In this document: positions 1 through 52,318 of the stretch, one piece after another
Layout: each line of letters starts with the position of its first letter
Position numbering within the stretch: the first letter of the stretch is position 1
Source: Candidatus Doudnabacteria bacterium RIFCSPHIGHO2_01_FULL_46_14
GTDB taxonomy: Bacteria; Patescibacteriota; Doudnabacteria; UBA920; 2-01-FULL-46-14
DNA: 64,000 bases
Assembly: GCA_001779925.1 (NCBI GenBank)
Contig: MFEK01000007.1
Span: forward strand, 4,108 to 68,107
Direction: 5' to 3'
Translations under genes and position numbers: made by a program
Notes under the pieces: generated by a model
Database searches by the model: none
Seen by the model: only the letters and a program-made list of their open reading frames with translations
Told to the model about the DNA's origin: nothing

Positions 1-342
1 GATTGGAATCGCAGTGATGGAAGGCGAGTTTCGCGGCAAAAAAGCAGTGGTAACCGTTGAAATGTTTGCTAGCCCGACGGAGACAGTGGCAGCCAAATAA
101 TTTACCATATTAGAAATGCCTTTCTAATATGACGAGCATTTCAGGCTAGCCCGGTAGTGAAAGTTCGATAGGCCGGAAAAAAACGGTTGAATCGAATTTA
201 ATATCGAACTTCTACTATCCGGGGTTAGTTTGATCAGGGTAGCCCGCACAAAACGGGCAAAAAAGGAGACTGATTTCCAAAAACAGGGTCTCCCAAAAAT
301 CTTATTGGATTTTTGGGGTGATCTAGAAGTCTTTCTCTAACA

Positions 343-1078: not shown

Positions 1079-1192
1079 TTATAGATTCACCCCCTTCCGT
1101 GTTAGCTTGTAGGAATTAGGTTGTAAGTTGTAGGTCAGGTTCAGGTTCCCTATTCCTACCGGCTACAAGCTACTAGCTACCAGCTGTTAATG

Positions 1193-1630
1193 CTATTCTC
1201 CTAAAATTTGTACTAACACCCGGCGCGCTCTGCCGCCGTCGAGCTCCACAAAGAATATGCTTTGCCGCTCGCCGAGCATGAGCTTGCCGCCTTCAACCGG
1301 TACGGTTTCGCTGTCGCCTAAAAGGAAAGCTTTAACGTGCGCATGGCCGTTGGAGCGCTCGTCTGCTTTGACCTTGGAGCGCATCTCAAACAAATCATGC
1401 GCGTAATTAATGTCGATCGGCGCGGCTCTGTAAAGCATTTTCATAATATCCTGCTTGAGCAAAGGCTCGTTGTGGTTTACCCGTATGGCCGCGGTCGTGT
1501 GCGGACAAAAAATCACAGCCACGCCGGATTTAACCTTGCTTTGTTTTACGGCCTTGGCAACCTGGTCAGTTATGTCAACGATCTCAAACTGGGTTGTAGT
1601 GTCGATTTTTATTTCTTCATTGTAAGTCAT
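1193..1630 (-). CDS. YjbQ/UPF0047 family protein
   Basis: 145 aa with typical YjbQ-family length and motifs (FCPHTTAAI..., GHAHVKA...). Confidence 0.65.
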   Translation of the reverse strand: MTYNEEIKIDTTTQFEIVDITDQVAKAVKQSKVKSGVAVIFCPHTTAAIRVNHNEPLLKQDIMKMLYRAAPIDINYAHDLFEMRSKVKADERSNGHAHVKAFLLGDSETVPVEGGKLMLGERQSIFFVELDGGRARRVLVQILGE

Positions 1631-1640
1631 ATGTGTTTTT

Positions 1641-1712
1641 TCCCTCCCCTTGCCGTGTCCGCCGTAGCTTCAGCGGAGGCTGGGAGGGGGAGGGTTAGGG
1701 AGGGGTGAAAAT
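1641..1712. repeat. GC-rich palindromic hairpin element (family A), intergenic copy
   Basis: tccctcccc...ccgccgtagcttcagcggaggctgggagggggagggttagggaggggtgaaa; the same 3' module recurs at 20290-20325, 50617-50650 and 51784-51815. Confidence 0.8.
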
Positions 1713-1927
1713 TATTCTCCGATTCTTTCCTTAATTCTGCCTAGCCTGGTTGTTATAATCACCGCGGCCAGAGTCACCAAAATCGCATATAGAAAAAGAG
1801 AAAGTACGCCTTTCCCTTTTGGTATAAATTGTTCAATCAATTTTTTTATTGCTTCGTTCCACGCCAGCGCCGCGACCAAGCCAAAAGCCGTGCCAACCAT
1901 CGTCAAACTTTCACTAACAATTTTCAC
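1712..1927 (-). CDS. Small membrane protein (GTG start)
   Basis: 71 aa with two hydrophobic helices, preceded by a conserved TTTTAACGGGGTGA box upstream of the start. Confidence 0.4.
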   Translation of the reverse strand: MKIVSESLTMVGTAFGLVAALAWNEAIKKLIEQFIPKGKGVLSLFLYAILVTLAAVIITTRLGRIKERIGE

Positions 1928-5206: not shown

Positions 5207-5283
5207 TTTTACTTCTTCATCTCTTTGTGCGGGGTGTGCTTTTTGCACCACTTGTCAGCCAAAGGCTGATCTGCCGCGGGCAC
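5207..5283. repeat. Partial duplicate of the rpmG 3' end (last ~13 codons plus stop, minus strand) fused to a 30-nt hairpin motif TTGTCAGCCAAAGGCTGATCTGCCGCGGGC
   Basis: Reverse complement reads ...DKWCKKHTPHKEMKK*, a diverged copy of the rpmG C-terminus. The motif recurs at 48013-48052 next to the duplicated tRNA-Ser half. Confidence 0.6.
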
Positions 5284-5293
5284 GCTCTTTGCA

Positions 5294-5461
5294 ATAATTA
5301 AACTACTTCTTCATCTCTTTGTGGACTTGGTGTTTTTTACACCACCGACAAAATTTCTTCAGCTCCAAGGCGTTTGGAACAGCTTTCTTATTTCGAGTGG
5401 TATGGTAGTTGATCCGCTTGCAGACTGTGCACTGCAGCTTTACTAAATTTTCCTGGGCCAT
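5294..5461 (-). CDS. rpmG: 50S ribosomal protein L33
   Basis: MAQENLVKLQCTVCKRINYHTTRNKKAVPNALELKKFCRWCKKHQVHKEMKK (55 aa), below the ORF-track length cutoff. Confidence 0.8.
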
Positions 5462-45633: not shown

Positions 45634-46203
45634 CTAACGGGGTTCATATTTTAAAATCTTTTTTAGTTCACTAATGGCTCGATGCTGGATAACGCGGATC
45701 GCGCCTTCTGATTTGCCAAGTATCTTGGCGATATCAGGATTGTCGAGCTCCTCGAGAAATTTGAGCTTGATGACGATTTGTTGTTCTTCGGTTAGCTGGC
45801 CGAGATTTTCCAAAAAGGCTTTTTGCTGAAAAGACAGATTCGTCCGGTCAATCATATTGTCTTCGTACTGCAGGACATTCTCCAAAAGACTGATGTCCAC
45901 GTTCTCTTTGCGGGAACGGTAATAATCGATCACCAGGTTTCTGGCGATCTGGTAAATCCAGCCGTTGAAGGCTTGGGCTTCCTGGATTTTATCCAGCTTG
46001 TCCCAGACTTTGATAAACACCTCTGAAACCAGGTCTTCGGCTGCTTCCTTGTGATTGACCCGGAAATAGATAAATCTATAAACCTTTTGAAAGTACAGAT
46101 CGTAAATCTGGCCAAAAGCTATCTCATCGCCATTTTTGGCTCTAAGGACGAGCGCTTCTAGGTTTTGAGAATTGCTGTTTTGGTCCACAAATTGCTGGAT
46201 CAA
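45634..46203 (-). CDS. ECF-type RNA polymerase sigma factor
   Basis: Sigma-70 region 2 (FIYFRVNHKEAAEDLVSEVFIKVW) and region 4 HTH (ELDNPDIAKILGKSEGAIRVIQHRAISELK). Confidence 0.8.
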   Translation of the reverse strand: MIQQFVDQNSNSQNLEALVLRAKNGDEIAFGQIYDLYFQKVYRFIYFRVNHKEAAEDLVSEVFIKVWDKLDKIQEAQAFNGWIYQIARNLVIDYYRSRKENVDISLLENVLQYEDNMIDRTNLSFQQKAFLENLGQLTEEQQIVIKLKFLEELDNPDIAKILGKSEGAIRVIQHRAISELKKILKYEPR

Positions 46204-46327
46204 TGATTAAGACGAGCCACAATGAGAAATGTTTCAAAGTGGAATCTATATTACACCATATATCGAGAAAAAAATCCAGCCCTAGGCTGGTCAGCCTCGG
46301 GCTGAAAAGCTGATTGTAAAAGTTGAT

Positions 46328-47341
46328 TTAGTATTTGCTCTTTCCGGTGTTAACAATGAGAATTTTCTTACCTCGCGGCAGCATTCTTTGCAGCTGCAGC
46401 AAAAGGGCCAATCCCGCAATCCCTGAGGGCTCGCAATTGACGTTATTGCGGCTGGCCAGAGCCAGAGCTTTGTCGAGGAAATTCTCTTTTAGCTGGTAAA
46501 TGCGGCTTTTTGCGCCAATTAAGCCGCTGTAAATATAATACTTTATCCACTGCTCGGAATAGTTGGCAAAAGGAAGAAACGGAGCATAAAGCTTATCAGC
46601 CTTGCTCTTCGGATCACTGGTAGTTGCGCCCAAGAAAGAGCAATCCCTCAGAGTTTTTTTGTTGCCTTTGAACCTCGGGTCGCGGGCTCCGTACTGGAGC
46701 TCTTTCTTTACGATGTTTAAAAGATTTTCATAGAGCTGTCCGGTACCAAATGGTAAAAACACGTAATTAGCGTCACTATTGATAATCTCGTAGCTCATCC
46801 AGTCATAAAACCTGACAGTAGGATCATAAGCTTCATTAGAGGTAATATCAAATCCTTTCGGATTCCTGGTGAGGCGCAAAATATCTTGCCAATCAAAAAC
46901 TTTTCGTCTTAAGGTCTCTAAAAAAATCCGGCAACCGATTTTTTTTAGACTGCTGACTACTTTCGAATCAGTCCGTGAATCCATGAGCACCAGCAAATCA
47001 GGCAGATGGTATTGTCTAAGCTTGGTTTGGATAGCAAGAGCTGCAGAGCCAGAGCTCAAAATCGACAAATGCGGGAGTTTGTTTATTAAACCTTTCTTTT
47101 TGGCGAGTAAAAATTCGCGGTAAGTAACTACCATCTCCCAGGCCATGCGGTCCTTGTGCGTGCCCGTCAGATTTACACTTTCGTCTTTCAGCCAAACATT
47201 GGAAAAACCCTGCACATTGATTTGGTAGGTCGGCGTAGCAGGAAACCTCGGGTTTTCCGGAGGAAACTCTGGCCGGTTCGGATCATTCTCGGAAGCAACC
47301 AGGATAGATTTTAATATTTTTTCTTCTGCTTTGCTGAGCAT
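46328..47341 (-). CDS. PLP-dependent enzyme, fold-type II (Trp-synthase beta / threonine synthase-like)
   Basis: LKDESVNLTGTHKDRMA with the lysine in the THKDR context; glycine-rich loop FGTGQ. Confidence 0.55.
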   Translation of the reverse strand: MLSKAEEKILKSILVASENDPNRPEFPPENPRFPATPTYQINVQGFSNVWLKDESVNLTGTHKDRMAWEMVVTYREFLLAKKKGLINKLPHLSILSSGSAALAIQTKLRQYHLPDLLVLMDSRTDSKVVSSLKKIGCRIFLETLRRKVFDWQDILRLTRNPKGFDITSNEAYDPTVRFYDWMSYEIINSDANYVFLPFGTGQLYENLLNIVKKELQYGARDPRFKGNKKTLRDCSFLGATTSDPKSKADKLYAPFLPFANYSEQWIKYYIYSGLIGAKSRIYQLKENFLDKALALASRNNVNCEPSGIAGLALLLQLQRMLPRGKKILIVNTGKSKY

Positions 47342-47366
47342 CTATTGTTTACCAATATTATCCGTC

Positions 47367-47456
47367 TGGCGGAGGAGGTGGGATTCGAACCCACGAGACC
47401 CCTGACGGGGTCGCAGATTAGCAATCTGCTGGTTTAAGCCGCTTACCTACTCCTCC
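47367..47456 (-). tRNA. tRNA-Ser (anticodon GCU), class II
   Basis: GGAGGAGTAGGTAAGCGGCTTAAACC...GCAGATTGCTAATCTGC...long variable arm...GGTTCGAATCCCACCTCCTCCGCCA. Confidence 0.8.
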
Positions 47457-47474
47457 GCTAGAAGGACAATCAAT

Positions 47475-47942
47475 TTAAAATTTGAGTGTTCGGGAGATTT
47501 TGTCGGAGATTCGCTCTTCCCGGTCCAAATCCTCCGGAAGATAGTCTAGCAGGAAATCGCGCACCTCGGAAGGATTCTGGTCTTCAAGCTGGAGGGTCAG
47601 AAAACGGTTCAAATACGCGGAAGTTTCGAAATTCACCGTCTTTATATCCGGCGGTTCATACACCAACCAGAAAGTTTTGACTTGCTGATAAGGAATATGT
47701 GAATCATTCATGGTTACGCCGCGCGGCCCTAGAATGATGCGCATCTGACGAGGCTTGGCGCGGGAAAAAAAGAATGCCATGAGAAAGAGCAAGATAAACA
47801 TCATTGCCGTGAGAAAATCCTTTTTAAAGAAAAAGTACCCCACTAGAAGCGCGCCAAAAATACCAAGTACCAGATACCATTTTGGGCCTTTTGGGTAGTG
47901 GATGAATTCCGGTGCTGACCAAATTATCTCTTTCTTTTCCAT
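47475..47942 (-). CDS. Hypothetical membrane protein
   Basis: 155 aa, two TM helices. Confidence 0.35.
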   Translation of the reverse strand: MEKKEIIWSAPEFIHYPKGPKWYLVLGIFGALLVGYFFFKKDFLTAMMFILLFLMAFFFSRAKPRQMRIILGPRGVTMNDSHIPYQQVKTFWLVYEPPDIKTVNFETSAYLNRFLTLQLEDQNPSEVRDFLLDYLPEDLDREERISDKISRTLKF

Positions 47943-47985
47943 AACCTTATTTTATCATATAATTAATAGTGCTACGAGGTGGGGT

Positions 47986-48023
47986 CGCATAGCGGTTTAG
48001 TGCACCAGTCTTGTCAGCCCAAG
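47986..48023 (+). pseudogene. Duplicated 5' half of tRNA-Ser(UGA): acceptor, D-arm and anticodon stem up to CUUG
   Basis: GGTGGGGTCGCATAGCGGTTTAGTGCACCAGTCTTG versus the intact gene at 48302 (GGTGGGGTCGCATAGTGGTCGAGTGCACCAGTCTTG): 32/36 identical. Confidence 0.6.
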
Positions 48024-48028
48024 GCTGA

Positions 48029-48316
48029 TCCGCCCCGGGCGGAAAAACCAAAAACTATACGCATTATGTTTACATACTAAAAAGTGAAAAAACGGGAAAA
48101 CTCTACAAAGGCAGCACGGATGATTTGAGGAAAAGAATACTTAACCACAATGCTCGCAAAGTAAATTCCACAAAAGGCGGGACACCATGGAAATTGATAT
48201 ACTATGAAGCATTTATCTCAAAAATGGACGCAAGGAGAGAGGAGCTATTTTTAAAAAGCGGAAAGGGTCGCGAGAGAATTAAGTGGCTATTTAATCAAAA
48301 TGGTGGGGTCGCATAG
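48029..48316 (+). pseudogene. GIY-YIG endonuclease-domain ORF with no in-frame ATG/GTG/TTG before the GIY motif (possibly degenerate)
   Basis: Frame reads ...HYVYILKSEKTGKLYKGSTDDLRKRILNHNARK...GTPWKLIYYEAFISKMDARREELFLKSGKGRERIKW. The GIY...YKG, R, E, N core is intact. An in-frame TGA lies at 48026; the first candidate start (TTG 48125) is after the GIY motif; the stop lies inside the downstream tRNA. Confidence 0.55.
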
Positions 48317-48391
48317 TGGTCGAGTGCACCAGTCTTGAAAACTGGAACGGGTGAAAGCCCGTCGAGGGTTCGAATCCCTCCCCCACCGCCA
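48302..48391 (+). tRNA. tRNA-Ser (anticodon UGA), class II
   Basis: GGTGGGGTCGCATAGTGGTCGAGTGCACCAGTCTTGAAAACTGG...ACGGGTGAAAGCCCGTC...GGTTCGAATCCCTCCCCCACCGCCA. Confidence 0.85.
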
Positions 48392-48399
48392 TAGAAAGT

Positions 48400-48480
48400 T
48401 CAAAATGTAAATATCAAAATGTAAAATGACAGTGTTTAAATTTTAAAATTTTTAATTGTCATTTCGATTTTTACACTTTG
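48400..48480. repeat. AT-rich palindromic intergenic element, copy 2 (upstream of recG)
   Basis: aaaatgtaaatatcaaaatgtaaaatgacagtgtttaaattttaaaatttttaattgtcatttcga. Confidence 0.7.
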
Positions 48481-50612
48481 CATTTTACATTATCATGTTA
48501 TCAATAAATGATTCTGTCTCCAAACTCCACCTTGTTAAACCTGAGCACCTTGAGGCCTTATCCAAGCTTGGCATTAAAACCGTAAAAGATTTACTGTATC
48601 ATTTTCCCCGGGACTGGCAGGATCTTTCGGAAATTAAAAAGATTTCCGAGATACGGCCAGGGGAAAAGATCAGCATCAAGGCTCGAGTTAAACATCTGAG
48701 CATTCCTGGCTTTCCTTTTCGCAGGGTCAAGATCACGGAAGCCCTGCTCGAGGATGAAACCGGAAATGTGGTCGCGATCTGGTTTAACCAGCCGTACATA
48801 AAAAATTCGCTTCGCTTGGGAAATGAATATTATTTCAGCGGCAAGGGTCAGATTTACGCCACAAAAAAACAGCAAACCCTCCAGCTGACGCATCCCACAT
48901 TTGAGATGGTACGCGAGGAAACAATTCATGTTGCCGGTCTTATCCCTGATTACCCGCTCACAGAAGGTATAACCCAAAAACAAGTCCGCTATTGGCTTAA
49001 ACAAGCTCTGGAATCTTTGCCGCAGCTCATAGAGATCCTGCCGGAAAAGTTGAAGAAAAAAATGAAGCTTATCGGGCACACGGAGGCAATAAAAAATCTA
49101 CATTTCCCTGATGATGCAGCCCATCTCAAAAAAGCAAAAAACCGCCTAGCTTTTGAGGAGTTATTTCTGTTTCAGCTGGCTTTCCAAAGCTATAAAAAAA
49201 CGTTAAAGTGCCTGCCGGCACCGGCAATCCAATTCGACAAAAATCTGGTAAGCCAATTCGTCGAGAAACTTTCGTTTCAGCTCACTGCCTCCCAGCGCCT
49301 CTCTGCCTGGGAAATCCTCAGCGACATGGCAAAGCCCCACCCTATGAACCGGCTCCTGGAAGGAGAGGTCGGCTCCGGGAAAACCGTAGTCGCCGGACTG
49401 GCTATGCTGGAAACGGCTACGGCCGGCTATCAATCGATATTGCTGGCACCGACGGAGATTTTGGCCTGGCAGCATTACCAAACCCTGGAAAAGCTTTTTG
49501 CGCATACTGGCATTAAGATTGCTTTGCAAACACGAAGTCATAAAATTGGGGAGATTAGGGAAATAAGGGAAGGCACGATCAAAATAATTGCAGGAACTCA
49601 TGCCCTTCTCCAAGAGCGGATCAGTTTCCATAAAATCGGTCTTTTAGTAATCGATGAACAGCACCGGTTTGGCATCAAACAGCGGCAAGCATTGCTTCGC
49701 GGACAAGCCGAGTTAGTTCCTCACCTATTAAGTATGACTGCGACCCCGATCCCGCGCACGCTCGCTCTGGCATTTTACGGAGACCTGGATATATCAAAGC
49801 TGAAGGAACTGCCCTCGGGAAGAAAAAAAGTCATCACGAAATTGGCATCGCCTGAGAATCGCGTGCTCGCCTACGAAGTTGTCAGAAAGGAATTGCAAAG
49901 AGGCCGACAGGCTTATGTGATCGTGCCGCTTGTCGGAGAAACAAGCGATTTATCACCCCTCCCTAACCCTCCTCCTCAAGGGGAGGGAAATACAAATGAA
50001 ACAAAATCAGTAATTACAGAGGTCGAAAAATTAAAAAAAATTTTCCCAGAATTCCAGATCGGCCTTCTTCATGGCAAAATGCCCGGCGAGGAAAAGAAAA
50101 AAATCATGCAAGTATTTTCCGCCAAAGGCGGATCCGCAACCGGCGGAAAAGCTCATAAAATAGACATTCTCGTTTCCACGACCGTGGTCGAGGTCGGCGT
50201 AGATGTTCCAAACGCCACGATTATGATCATCGAGAACGCAGAACGGTTCGGCTTGTCGCAGCTGCACCAACTACGCGGTCGGGTTGGAAGATCACACCTG
50301 CAGTCTTTGTGCGTGCTGTTCGCCGGCCTCTATTCCGAAACGACACGGCAGCGCCTGGAAGCAGTCGTGAATAGCAATGACGGATTTGAGCTTGCGGAAA
50401 TTGATTTGAAGATGCGCGGCGCCGGCGAAATACTCGGCACCAAGCAGTCCGGTTTTATTCCCTTCAAAATCGCCTCGCTCAGCGACGAAAAAACAATCGA
50501 ATCAGCAAAAAAAGAAGCCCTGGCTCTTTTGGAGCAGGACCCTGAACTTGAGAATTATCCAATGCTGATGAAAAAGGTTGCGGAGATTTCAAAAGAAGCC
50601 CATCTGGAATGA
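48456..50612 (+). CDS. recG: ATP-dependent DNA helicase RecG with small in-frame repeat insertion
   Basis: Wedge/OB N-domain, helicase motifs GSGKT, DEQHRFG, TATPIPR, QLRGRVGR. A 13-aa insertion SPLPNPPPQGEGN is encoded by the palindromic element at 49954-49988. Confidence 0.9.
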   Translation: MSFRFLHFAFYIIMLSINDSVSKLHLVKPEHLEALSKLGIKTVKDLLYHFPRDWQDLSEIKKISEIRPGEKISIKARVKHLSIPGFPFRRVKITEALLEDETGNVVAIWFNQPYIKNSLRLGNEYYFSGKGQIYATKKQQTLQLTHPTFEMVREETIHVAGLIPDYPLTEGITQKQVRYWLKQALESLPQLIEILPEKLKKKMKLIGHTEAIKNLHFPDDAAHLKKAKNRLAFEELFLFQLAFQSYKKTLKCLPAPAIQFDKNLVSQFVEKLSFQLTASQRLSAWEILSDMAKPHPMNRLLEGEVGSGKTVVAGLAMLETATAGYQSILLAPTEILAWQHYQTLEKLFAHTGIKIALQTRSHKIGEIREIREGTIKIIAGTHALLQERISFHKIGLLVIDEQHRFGIKQRQALLRGQAELVPHLLSMTATPIPRTLALAFYGDLDISKLKELPSGRKKVITKLASPENRVLAYEVVRKELQRGRQAYVIVPLVGETSDLSPLPNPPPQGEGNTNETKSVITEVEKLKKIFPEFQIGLLHGKMPGEEKKKIMQVFSAKGGSATGGKAHKIDILVSTTVVEVGVDVPNATIMIIENAERFGLSQLHQLRGRVGRSHLQSLCVLFAGLYSETTRQRLEAVVNSNDGFELAEIDLKMRGAGEILGTKQSGFIPFKIASLSDEKTIESAKKEALALLEQDPELENYPMLMKKVAEISKEAHLE
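49954..49988. repeat. GC-rich palindromic hairpin (family A) inside recG, in frame
   Basis: cacccctccctaaccctcctcctcaaggggaggg. Confidence 0.8.
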
Positions 50613-52233: not shown

Positions 52234-52318
52234 AGCCTCGCACGGGATTCGAACCCGTATGTCCGCCACGGACGATAGTTTTCTAAACTATTGCGTATAC
52301 CAGTTCCGCCAGCGAGGC
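52234..52318 (-). tRNA. Class II tRNA (Leu-like body) with unusual anticodon loop UUAGAAA (reads as AGA), T discriminator, no encoded CCA
   Basis: GCCTCGCTGGCGGAACTGGTATACGCAATAGTTTAGAAAACTATCGTCCGTGGCGGACATACGGGTTCGAATCCCGTGCGAGGCT. Perfect 7-bp acceptor, D-arm like tRNA-Leu, long variable hairpin, canonical T-arm. Confidence 0.5.

Follow-up and report, generated by a model that had tools for sequence, protein, structure and literature searches.

In fungal mobile-ORF gene hybrids, which include a GIY-YIG case, a mobile open reading frame (ORF) carries one terminus of a gene and displaces the native one, and what is carried and what is displaced stem from different functional alleles (PMC3630166). 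Short mobile double-hairpin repeats are present in Allomyces mitochondrial DNA (cited in PMC3787672). SegB, a GIY-YIG nuclease of phages T4/T6, cleaves tRNA genes at a conserved T-loop motif and favours the inheritance of its own gene along with the tRNA genes nearby (PMC2330249). SegB also drives segmental duplication by a recombination-dependent route, and its co-localisation with tRNA genes in phages has statistical support (PMC13096335). The UPF0213/YhbQ-type group represents a minimal, possibly ancestral GIY-YIG form whose function is unknown (PMC1564403). Here we describe a locus in a 64,000-nucleotide stretch of contig MFEK01000007.1 from Candidatus Doudnabacteria bacterium RIFCSPHIGHO2_01_FULL_46_14 (the whole stretch is called the window below), in which a displaced 5' piece of tRNA-Ser(UGA), a 30-nt double-hairpin element and a UPF0213-type GIY-YIG nuclease gene stand directly in front of the intact tRNA gene. 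On balance, we incline to regard this cassette as a bacterial, chromosomal, domain-only and tRNA-Ser-specific version of an endonuclease gene that brings a replacement gene piece with it.

The intact tRNA-Ser(UGA) gene occupies 48302–48391 on the plus strand (ARAGORN; Rfam tRNA, 62.4 bits), and a promoter-like site, TTTCCA-16 nt-TATAAT, with a 10/12 match to the consensus, lies upstream at 47936–47963 (plus strand; TATAAT box at 47958–47963). An inserted block of 324 bp separates this promoter from the body of the tRNA gene, and no terminator-like site was found between the promoter-like site and the tRNA. Judged from the sequence, the site would originally have been the tRNA's own and now stands ahead of the whole cassette. 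The cassette begins with a displaced copy of tRNA-Ser positions 1–36 at 47978–48013 (plus strand), which is identical to 48302–48337 at 33 of 36 positions and ends at CTTG, after the second anticodon base, within the anticodon loop. No other long repeats were found in the region. The copy is followed at 48014–48043 by the double-hairpin element, two tandem 15-nt hairpins with predicted 6-bp stems (TCAGCC-CAA-GGCTGA, then TCCGCC-CCG-GGCGGA), and at 48044–48048 (plus strand) by AAAAC, which corresponds to tRNA positions 37–41. Because AAAAC resumes the tRNA sequence after the hairpin, as in CTTG|AAAAC of the intact tRNA, the hairpin is a clean insertion within a tRNA copy of positions 1–41. No intron or other known RNA family was matched by the hairpin or the fragment in an Rfam search of 46000–50000 at E ≤ 1, and the complete, high-scoring tRNA that follows the ORF is at odds with a group I tRNA intron or a split tRNA.

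The nuclease gene spans 85 codons at 48059–48316 (plus strand). Its reading frame is open from 48029, directly after an in-frame stop at 48026–48028, to the TAG at 48314–48316, which lies within the tRNA gene, and the nuclease gene takes its last codons and its stop from the first 15 nt of the tRNA. The product matched the Pfam GIY-YIG family PF01541 (score of 49.9 bits, above the cutoff of 22.6; E = 3.9e-13; profile positions 2–71 of 78), and its closest solved relative was the UPF0213 protein BH0048 (PDB 1zg2, E = 4.9e-7, residues 2–79). The ORF was 63–76% identical to Patescibacteria proteins of about 80 aa that begin with M[HY]YVYIL. These homologues are 79–85 aa long and consist of the catalytic domain alone; likewise, no second Pfam domain was found in the window protein, and a module able to read a long DNA target is absent from it. 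All 26 invariant residues of the family are kept in the window protein despite the loss of the ATG described below, and the catalytic-motif residues (Tyr pair of the GIY type, YxG, Arg, His/Asn and Glu), namely Y13, V14, Y15, Y26, G28, R36, H40, N41, E71 and E72, were invariant in 20 sequences, the window included. The TIGR01453 subfamily of group-I-intron/Seg GIY-YIG proteins scored 21.4 bits, below its cutoff of 56; a match to PHROG 5123 (E = 0.0048) covered only 38 residues, PADLOC returned no defence-system match for the nuclease, and tblastn detected no other copy of the ORF within the window.

The true start by alignment is 48059–48061, which is ACG in the window and ATG in 19 of 19 homologues, and no in-frame ATG, GTG or TTG occurs between the upstream stop and the domain. 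Six contigs, each assembled independently and drawn from different samples, all have this ACG, an agreement that excludes an assembly or sequencing error as its cause; gene callers left the nuclease gene uncalled in all six. A near-identical called protein was also lacking in a collection of 5.8 billion proteins, where the best matches were 75–79% identical. The loss of the start is therefore real and fixed in the population. Because ACG supports initiation in bacteria only at a trace level, the window copy of the nuclease is probably inactive or strongly attenuated and would represent a degenerating stage. An earlier model reading of the letters without database searches (the sequence-only reading) had recognised the 36-nt tRNA copy ending in the anticodon loop, the 30-nt hairpin motif behind it, the GIY-YIG ORF with its stop inside the tRNA, the intact catalytic core and the missing canonical start, all of which we recovered; its values of 32/36 identity and about 95 codons are corrected to those given above, the latter by homologue alignment, and the resumption of the tRNA sequence in AAAAC had escaped it. 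Its suggestion of a decaying gene is consistent with the lost start codon in the window, whereas the family itself proved to be large, conserved and ATG-initiated rather than a rare oddity.

To place the block among related genomes, Doudnabacteria relatives were located via a neighbouring 155-aa gene, and the percentages below are the identities of that neighbour. In L089/L090 (77%) and L091/L092 (67%), the site is empty, and the promoter flank of the window, ttttatcatataatt, directly abuts the tRNA; L223 (56%) is also empty, with a TATAAT-type flank similar to that of the window. The tRNA of L089 is identical to the intact copy of the window at 90 of 90 positions, and the fragment, hairpin and ORF are all absent there. 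A solo form without an ORF, made of fragment 1–36, double hairpin, AAAAC, a 16-nt spacer and the intact tRNA, was found in L093/L094 (56%), and another solo form with a 1-nt spacer and no ORF in L218–L220 (72%). In L221 (58%), the niche is occupied by a LAGLIDADG_3 ORF at 1102–1910 (minus strand; 42.7 bits against a cutoff of 22.5), the last 36 nt of which are tRNA positions 1–36 and the stop codon of which is the anticodon TGA; upstream of this ORF, only a weak match to a displaced tRNA fragment (score 8) was seen. A 334-aa LAGLIDADG ORF in L218 (778–1887) ends 13 nt before tRNA-Ser(GCU). The window itself represents the filled state, with fragment, hairpin, GIY-YIG ORF and intact tRNA. The block at tRNA-Ser in the window is thus an insertion that is present or absent among related genomes, the presence/absence polymorphism expected of a free-standing homing endonuclease gene. 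That one locus exists in four states and that its niche is shared by two endonuclease families unrelated to each other speak for invasion and loss on repeated occasions.

The displaced fragments carry information of their own. The window fragment differs from the intact copy at three positions; the intact copy is that of L089, and the D-loop variant of the fragment, AGCGGTTTAG, is that of the functional tRNA-Ser(UGA) in L093, a pattern that would fit, without proving, successive invasions. The fragments in L093 and L218 have compensated D-stems, and in the window, L093, L218 and L006 the fragment and the intact copy correspond to different functional alleles, which may reflect a transfer of flanking sequence together with the gene. 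Several fragments come from a different functional tRNA allele and not from simple local copying; a cassette that brought its own copy and displaced or replaced the 5' part of the tRNA fits this better. A simple tandem duplication that included the upstream flank was rejected as the source of the solo forms, as in L093 and L218 the spacer sequence differs from that of the upstream flank. The sequence-only reading had interpreted the locus as an insertion footprint that duplicated part of its tRNA target and had proposed a search for an empty site. The empty sites in L089–L092 and L223 bear out the insertion; the partial copy is real, and its description as a duplication of the target gives way to replacement. 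The same reading had named two findings that would speak against it, a partial tRNA copy standing without any endonuclease gene and a conserved family with conventional starts, and formally both were obtained: fragment and hairpin lack an endonuclease gene in L093/L094, L218–L220 and L014, and the family starts with ATG. In our view, these findings refine rather than overturn the homing idea.

We next considered the distribution of the arrangement across Patescibacteria. A scan with one genome per species gave 80 loci, and the counts that follow are restricted to the 59 whose ORF shares at least 55% identity with the query. In 52 of these 59 loci, a tRNA gene on the same strand lies 1–133 nt downstream of the ORF (median 23.5), and 48 of these 52 are tRNA-Ser genes, with all four anticodons represented (UGA 18, GCU 15, CGA 9, GGA 6). 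A double hairpin is present within 130 nt upstream of the ORF in 44/59 loci, and an upstream fragment starting at tRNA position 1–3 in 35/59. The hairpin splits the fragment near position 12/13, 21–23 or 35/36, and the fragment always resumes for 5–14 nt. The stop of the ORF lies 15 nt inside the tRNA in 8/59 loci, including the window, so that the ORF and the 5' part of the tRNA must travel together. Dozens of other genomes show the parts in this order, which excludes chance. Many homologues with ordinary ATG starts were thus found outside the window, almost always just 5' of tRNA-Ser; the tRNA-Ser-linked nuclease is a large conserved family, and it forms a distinct sub-cluster among UPF0213-type proteins. 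More distant GIY-YIG clades have neither the hairpin nor the downstream tRNA-Ser arrangement.

Within this family, ORF clusters follow the tRNA isoacceptor and the hairpin position, with exceptions such as Cys and switches among TGA, CGA and GCT. The ORF also occurs beside Tyr, Cys, His and Ala tRNAs, with matching upstream fragments at the Tyr, Cys and His loci. In L004, L006, L048 and L100, a tRNA 3' fragment with a hairpin lies just downstream of the intact tRNA. In L006, a unit of hairpin, ORF, different intact tRNA and hairpin is enclosed by the two halves of a single resident tRNA, the anticodon-stem strands of which match. ORF copies within one genome are divergent (42–69% identity to the query). 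Two or three divergent GIY-YIG ORFs were also observed around one or two tRNA genes in L009 (2675–3660), L015 (3025–4012) and L064 (2654–3219), flanking tRNA-Ser or tRNA-Asn both upstream and downstream or forming units of ORF and tRNA in tandem, which hints at repeated colonisation of the same tRNA neighbourhood. No earlier description of the linkage between GIY-YIG genes and tRNA-Ser, or of the 30-nt element in Patescibacteria, and no cleavage data for this clade were found in the literature searched, the coverage of which is incomplete.

The double-hairpin element was examined by a search that fixed only the inner GCC/GGC and left the outer three pairs of each stem free. The outer pairs were kept in 34 of 34 distinct copies (100% of cells), with six pairs changed on both sides, a stem covariation that none of 500 shuffles equalled. 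Further copies of the motif, for which the sequence-only reading had suggested searching the genome, were found both within the window and beyond it. The window holds four copies and eight single-hairpin matches, as against about two per shuffle, with both strands counted. Besides the copy at tRNA-Ser, a copy with a decayed second hairpin lies at 5255–5284 (31 nt at 90% identity to 48010–48040 by blastn, and motif scan), an intergenic copy at 46276–46305 (motif scan) and a copy at 50118–50147 (motif scan and sequence comparison) in frame within recG; the four copies differ in stem sequence. In metagenomes, at least 119 stretches with the element were recovered. These data demonstrate that the hairpin is an independent, structured, dispersed and recently mobile element that is not private to the tRNA-Ser locus.

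Its insertion preference was analysed with the flanks of 84 insertions from an unselected metagenome sample. The flanks followed TY|RA, the left side having T in 81% and T/C in 82% of cases and the right side A/G in 87% and A in 85%, and the insertion points within tRNA sequences (CTTG|AAAA, GTTT|AAGG, GTTC|GAAT) match this preference. A GIY-YIG gene adjoins only 3 of the 84. No target-site duplication was seen in the tRNA copies or in recG, where the insertions are clean, and about 90% of the 84 insertions have no flanking duplication; with 5/84 above the 99th percentile of the control, flank duplication is excluded as a general property of the insertion. Insertion into the loops of pre-existing hairpins was likewise rejected, as stems of at least 6 bp were present at 4.8% of sites compared with 5.1% of control TTB|RAA sites. 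No transposase gene was identified for the element, and no HUH transposase was seen nearby. The element therefore shares dispersed copies and structure with MITEs, transposable elements of the miniature inverted-repeat type, and repetitive extragenic palindromic sequences (REPs); target-site duplication and a cognate transposase were not found.

Several other loci illustrate the behaviour of these hairpins. The same unusual hairpin variant occurs on both sides of the cassette in L048. At 1846–2132 of L163, the 3' two-thirds of tRNA-Val(GAC) and its terminator form a tandem duplication with 52 nt at 100% identity, and the spare copy contains this hairpin in its T-loop together with two other hairpin inserts; the sequence suggests a very recent duplication and a very high rate of insertion into spare tRNA sequence. 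Downstream of tRNA-Ser in L039, two 20-nt hairpins lie in a T-loop fragment, and hairpins with nested or enlarged loops were seen downstream of tRNA-Ser in L048 and at about 110–250 (minus strand) of L218. From such sequences, and from L017, L040 and L031, the hairpin repeat family appears to be diverse and to accept insertions into its own loops.

Two protein-coding genes of the window are touched by the element as well. The intact rpmG gene (L33) lies at 5303–5461 (minus strand), and a displaced 42-nt copy of its 3' end lies at 5210–5251 (minus strand), identical to 5304–5345 at 34 of 42 positions. The order within 5210–5461 is intact rpmG, an 18-nt spacer, the double-hairpin element and the displaced 3' end, and no endonuclease ORF is present. 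The displaced copy encodes an alternative C-terminus, WCKKHTPHKEMKK, with TP in place of QV and its own stop. Because the differences are concentrated in two codons and are otherwise synonymous, with frame and stop kept, the copy comes from a functional allele. In recG (48495–50612), the in-frame double hairpin adds ten residues, SAKGGSATGG, that are absent in the relatives L089 and L093. The recG gene of L093 carries another hairpin insert, KGGPASGGKV, at a different position, and a second insert in recG of the window, SDLSPLPNPPPQGEGNTNE at 49944–50000, is built on a CCCCTCCCT...AGGGGAGGG palindrome and is present in L089 and absent in L093.

Some features around the tRNA gene were observed in passing. 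Between tRNA-Ser(UGA) and recG, 48392–48494 is an AT-rich stretch of about 100 nt with long inverted repeats (48402–48431 and 48457–48486), which may be another small palindromic insertion or a terminator; in the empty-site relative L089, only 13 nt separate the two genes. On the 3' side of the orthologous tRNA-Ser(UGA), a SLFN/AlbA_2-HATPase gene and a large serine recombinase gene replace each other between L091 (1255–2682) and L092 (1439–2758); these contigs are otherwise collinear and L092 carries the recombinase, so that the 3' side appears to be an integration hotspot as well. ARAGORN further assigned a class II tRNA at 52234–52318 (minus strand) to tRNA-Ser with an AGA anticodon, an unusual one among bacteria; its anticodon loop is TTAGAAA, so its identity as Ser or Leu is uncertain.

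The fungal systems used for comparison were Allomyces macrogynus atp6, Glomus atp6, atp9, cox2 and nad3, and the Allomyces double-hairpin elements. In these mobile-ORF hybrids, as is proposed here, an endonuclease ORF that stands free (GIY-YIG in Glomus atp9) moves along with part of its host gene, the intact gene is restored, and the displaced native terminus is left nearby as a fragment. The rpmG locus of the window shows the same layout at the 3' end of a gene. The allomycete double-hairpin elements are reportedly linked physically to the atp6 insertion. The hybrid architecture of fragment, ORF and intact tRNA was found in at least 35 loci, in mirror image of the published layout (PMC3630166). 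The locus differs from the fungal hybrids in lying on a bacterial chromosome, in its tRNA target and in the duplication of the 5' end, so that the ORF sits between the promoter and the gene. It also differs in that the nuclease is a domain-only protein of about 80 aa and in that a hairpin interrupts the displaced fragment in nearly every case.

The likeness to SegB would be a functional one and lies in a free-standing GIY-YIG nuclease gene amid tRNA genes. SegB comprises about 220 aa in two domains and includes a DNA-binding region, whereas the window protein is the catalytic domain alone and has no significant sequence relationship to SegB beyond the GIY-YIG fold. The association described here is, moreover, specific to tRNA-Ser, with a fixed 5'-adjacent position, and its setting is cellular; viral contigs yielded only three hairpin matches and one distant ORF homologue at 36% identity, which excludes a phage origin. 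In sequence family and in minimal, domain-only architecture, the protein resembles the UPF0213/YhbQ and bacterial Slx1-like proteins (1zg2 BH0048, 1ywl EF2693), from which it is set apart by its tRNA linkage, hairpin association and proposed mobility, none of which was described for that family in the literature searched. The 30-nt element itself resembles MITE/REP repeats and the Rickettsia palindromic elements, being short, palindromic, multi-copy, dispersed and found in frame within genes. Unlike these repeats, it is only 30 nt long and consists of two tandem 15-nt hairpins; no target-site duplication was seen, and it lacks the GTAG/CGTC tag of REPs.

Our somewhat favoured interpretation, drawn from sequence comparison, is a free-standing, domain-only homing-endonuclease cassette of the UPF0213 type that would copy itself into tRNA-Ser while regenerating an intact tRNA, and that would be degenerating in the window. 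The nuclease would break a cassette-free tRNA-Ser gene, and the break would be repaired by copying from a cassette-bearing allele, the left arm of homology being the tRNA fragment and the right arm the intact tRNA. The nuclease gene would thereby be copied in and a whole tRNA regenerated, and the resident 5' part would stay behind as the fragment. The cassette would then decay, as the ACG may indicate here, and could be lost by recombination between the two tRNA copies, leaving an emptied site open to re-invasion. We favour homing because of the empty sites and alternative states, the recurrence, the 15-nt overlap, the fragments from functional alleles and the split tRNA of L006, and also because of the clades that track isoacceptors, the kept coding residues and the SegB and fungal precedents. 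Several points weigh against it. The protein is a catalytic domain of about 80 aa without a DNA-binding domain for a long homing site, unlike I-TevI and SegB, and no immunity of the cassette-bearing allele is obvious, since the regenerated tRNA is often identical to the fragment near the junction (36/36 in L010; the last 15 nt before the junction in the window). Simple homing explains neither the stretch of 5–14 nt of tRNA that follows the hairpin nor the near-universal hairpin in the fragment. The divergence of copies within one genome gives no sign of recent intragenomic jumping. Finally, the intact tRNA and not the fragment matches the closest empty-site relative, so that an earlier invasion and loss would have to be assumed in order to say which copy is native.

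The hairpin association is explained better if the double-hairpin elements have their trans-acting nuclease in the GIY-YIG protein of the UPF0213 type, comparable to the REP-associated tyrosine transposase (RAYT) for REPs, an alternative that we regard as unlikely. The protein would cut at TY|RA sites such as those in the D, anticodon and T loops of tRNAs, repair would give hairpin insertions and duplications of tRNA segments, and a gene adjoining a hairpin would be the 'autonomous' copy. The 44 of 59 ORFs with a double hairpin immediately upstream, compared with seven double hairpins in other places across some 415 kb of these loci, support such a partnership, as do the TY|RA flanks of the 84 unselected insertions and the agreeing tRNA insertion points, the shared hairpin variant on both sides of the cassette in L048, the fresh tRNA-Val duplication in L163 with three hairpin insertions in its spare copy, and the recG insert as a sign of recent mobility in the window lineage. 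RAWTSGAAC, the cleavage motif measured for SegB, is also that of the T-loop in tRNAs, and segmental duplications result from its cuts (PMC13096335). However, a GIY-YIG gene lies near only 3 of the 84 unselected insertions, and the insertions without flanking duplication (about 90%) do not favour the partnership either. GIY-YIG enzymes, moreover, are not known to catalyse strand transfer; the hairpin copies in the window all differ in their stems, unlike those of a recently copied family, and the nuclease lacks its start here, yet the recG insertion is lineage-specific. A two-component selfish system of UPF0213-type GIY-YIG protein and double hairpin, in which TY|RA cuts would seed both insertions, some of them in frame, and duplications of tRNA segments, and in which the nuclease gene would ensure its inheritance by riding just 5' of tRNA-Ser with a spare tRNA part, is rated as a minor possibility.

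It is also rather improbable that no drive is involved and that a resident gene with a cellular DNA or RNA function is simply co-transcribed with tRNA-Ser, the fragments being spontaneous tandem duplications, the hairpins collecting in spare tRNA loops as the only tolerated preferred targets, and presence or absence reflecting ordinary deletion. The conserved catalytic residues, conventional starts and very stable position 5' of tRNA-Ser would suit a resident gene, as would the ORF clades that largely follow the isoacceptor and the L163 duplication, which reaches past the gene into the terminator and then received multiple insertions; UPF0213 proteins occur in many bacteria without known mobility (PMC1564403). 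Such an account is nevertheless hard to square with the four states at one Doudnabacteria locus, including an unrelated LAGLIDADG gene in the same niche, and with fragments that come from other functional alleles and not from local copies. The resident tRNA of L006 split around a foreign tRNA and ORF, the occurrence beside Tyr, Cys, His and Ala tRNAs with matching fragments at the first three, and a hairpin occupancy of 85% in fragments of about 40 nt, which far exceeds random secondary insertion, speak against it as well. An attL/attR-type scar of a recombinase-driven integrative element, with the GIY-YIG gene as leftover cargo, is a most improbable origin. Integration into transfer RNA genes is a classic pattern, elements of this kind are bordered by partial tRNA repeats, and L092 has a serine recombinase gene 3' of the orthologous tRNA; that gene, however, stands on the opposite side of the tRNA, and the 5' side is empty in this relative. 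Furthermore, the whole insert measures 324 bp and contains no recombinase, the duplicated part is the 5' half with a junction that varies among loci (about 12, 21 and 36), the same tiny unit occurs in at least 44 genomes, and no related locus was seen in which fragment and hairpin bound a larger integrase-bearing element.

The same three-part arrangement across the ultra-small Patescibacteria points to a widespread, apparently undescribed family of tRNA-targeting selfish elements, accompanied by a previously unremarked family of 30-nt double-hairpin repeats. The UPF0213/YhbQ-type proteins are widespread and have solved structures, and no role has been assigned to them; the tRNA-Ser clade, with its empty, solo and filled alleles, offers the testable idea that they cleave tRNA-Ser DNA or TY|RA sites. 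If the nuclease and the hairpin did form a two-component system, this would be the first function for the UPF0213 family and the first bacterial counterpart of the mitochondrial pairing of mobile ORF and double hairpin. For uncultured lineages, the 30-nt element matters to annotation and phylogeny, as proteins gain 10-residue inserts from it and pseudo-tRNA fragments arise through it. Even genomes as small as about 1 Mb probably contain selfish DNA that is actively cycling and that reshapes essential genes without killing them, as seen for tRNA-Ser, rpmG and recG in the window alone. Seen beside fungal mitochondria and T-even phages, the locus suggests a rule of wider validity, namely that free-standing endonuclease genes can colonise essential genes on condition that a replacement piece comes with them.

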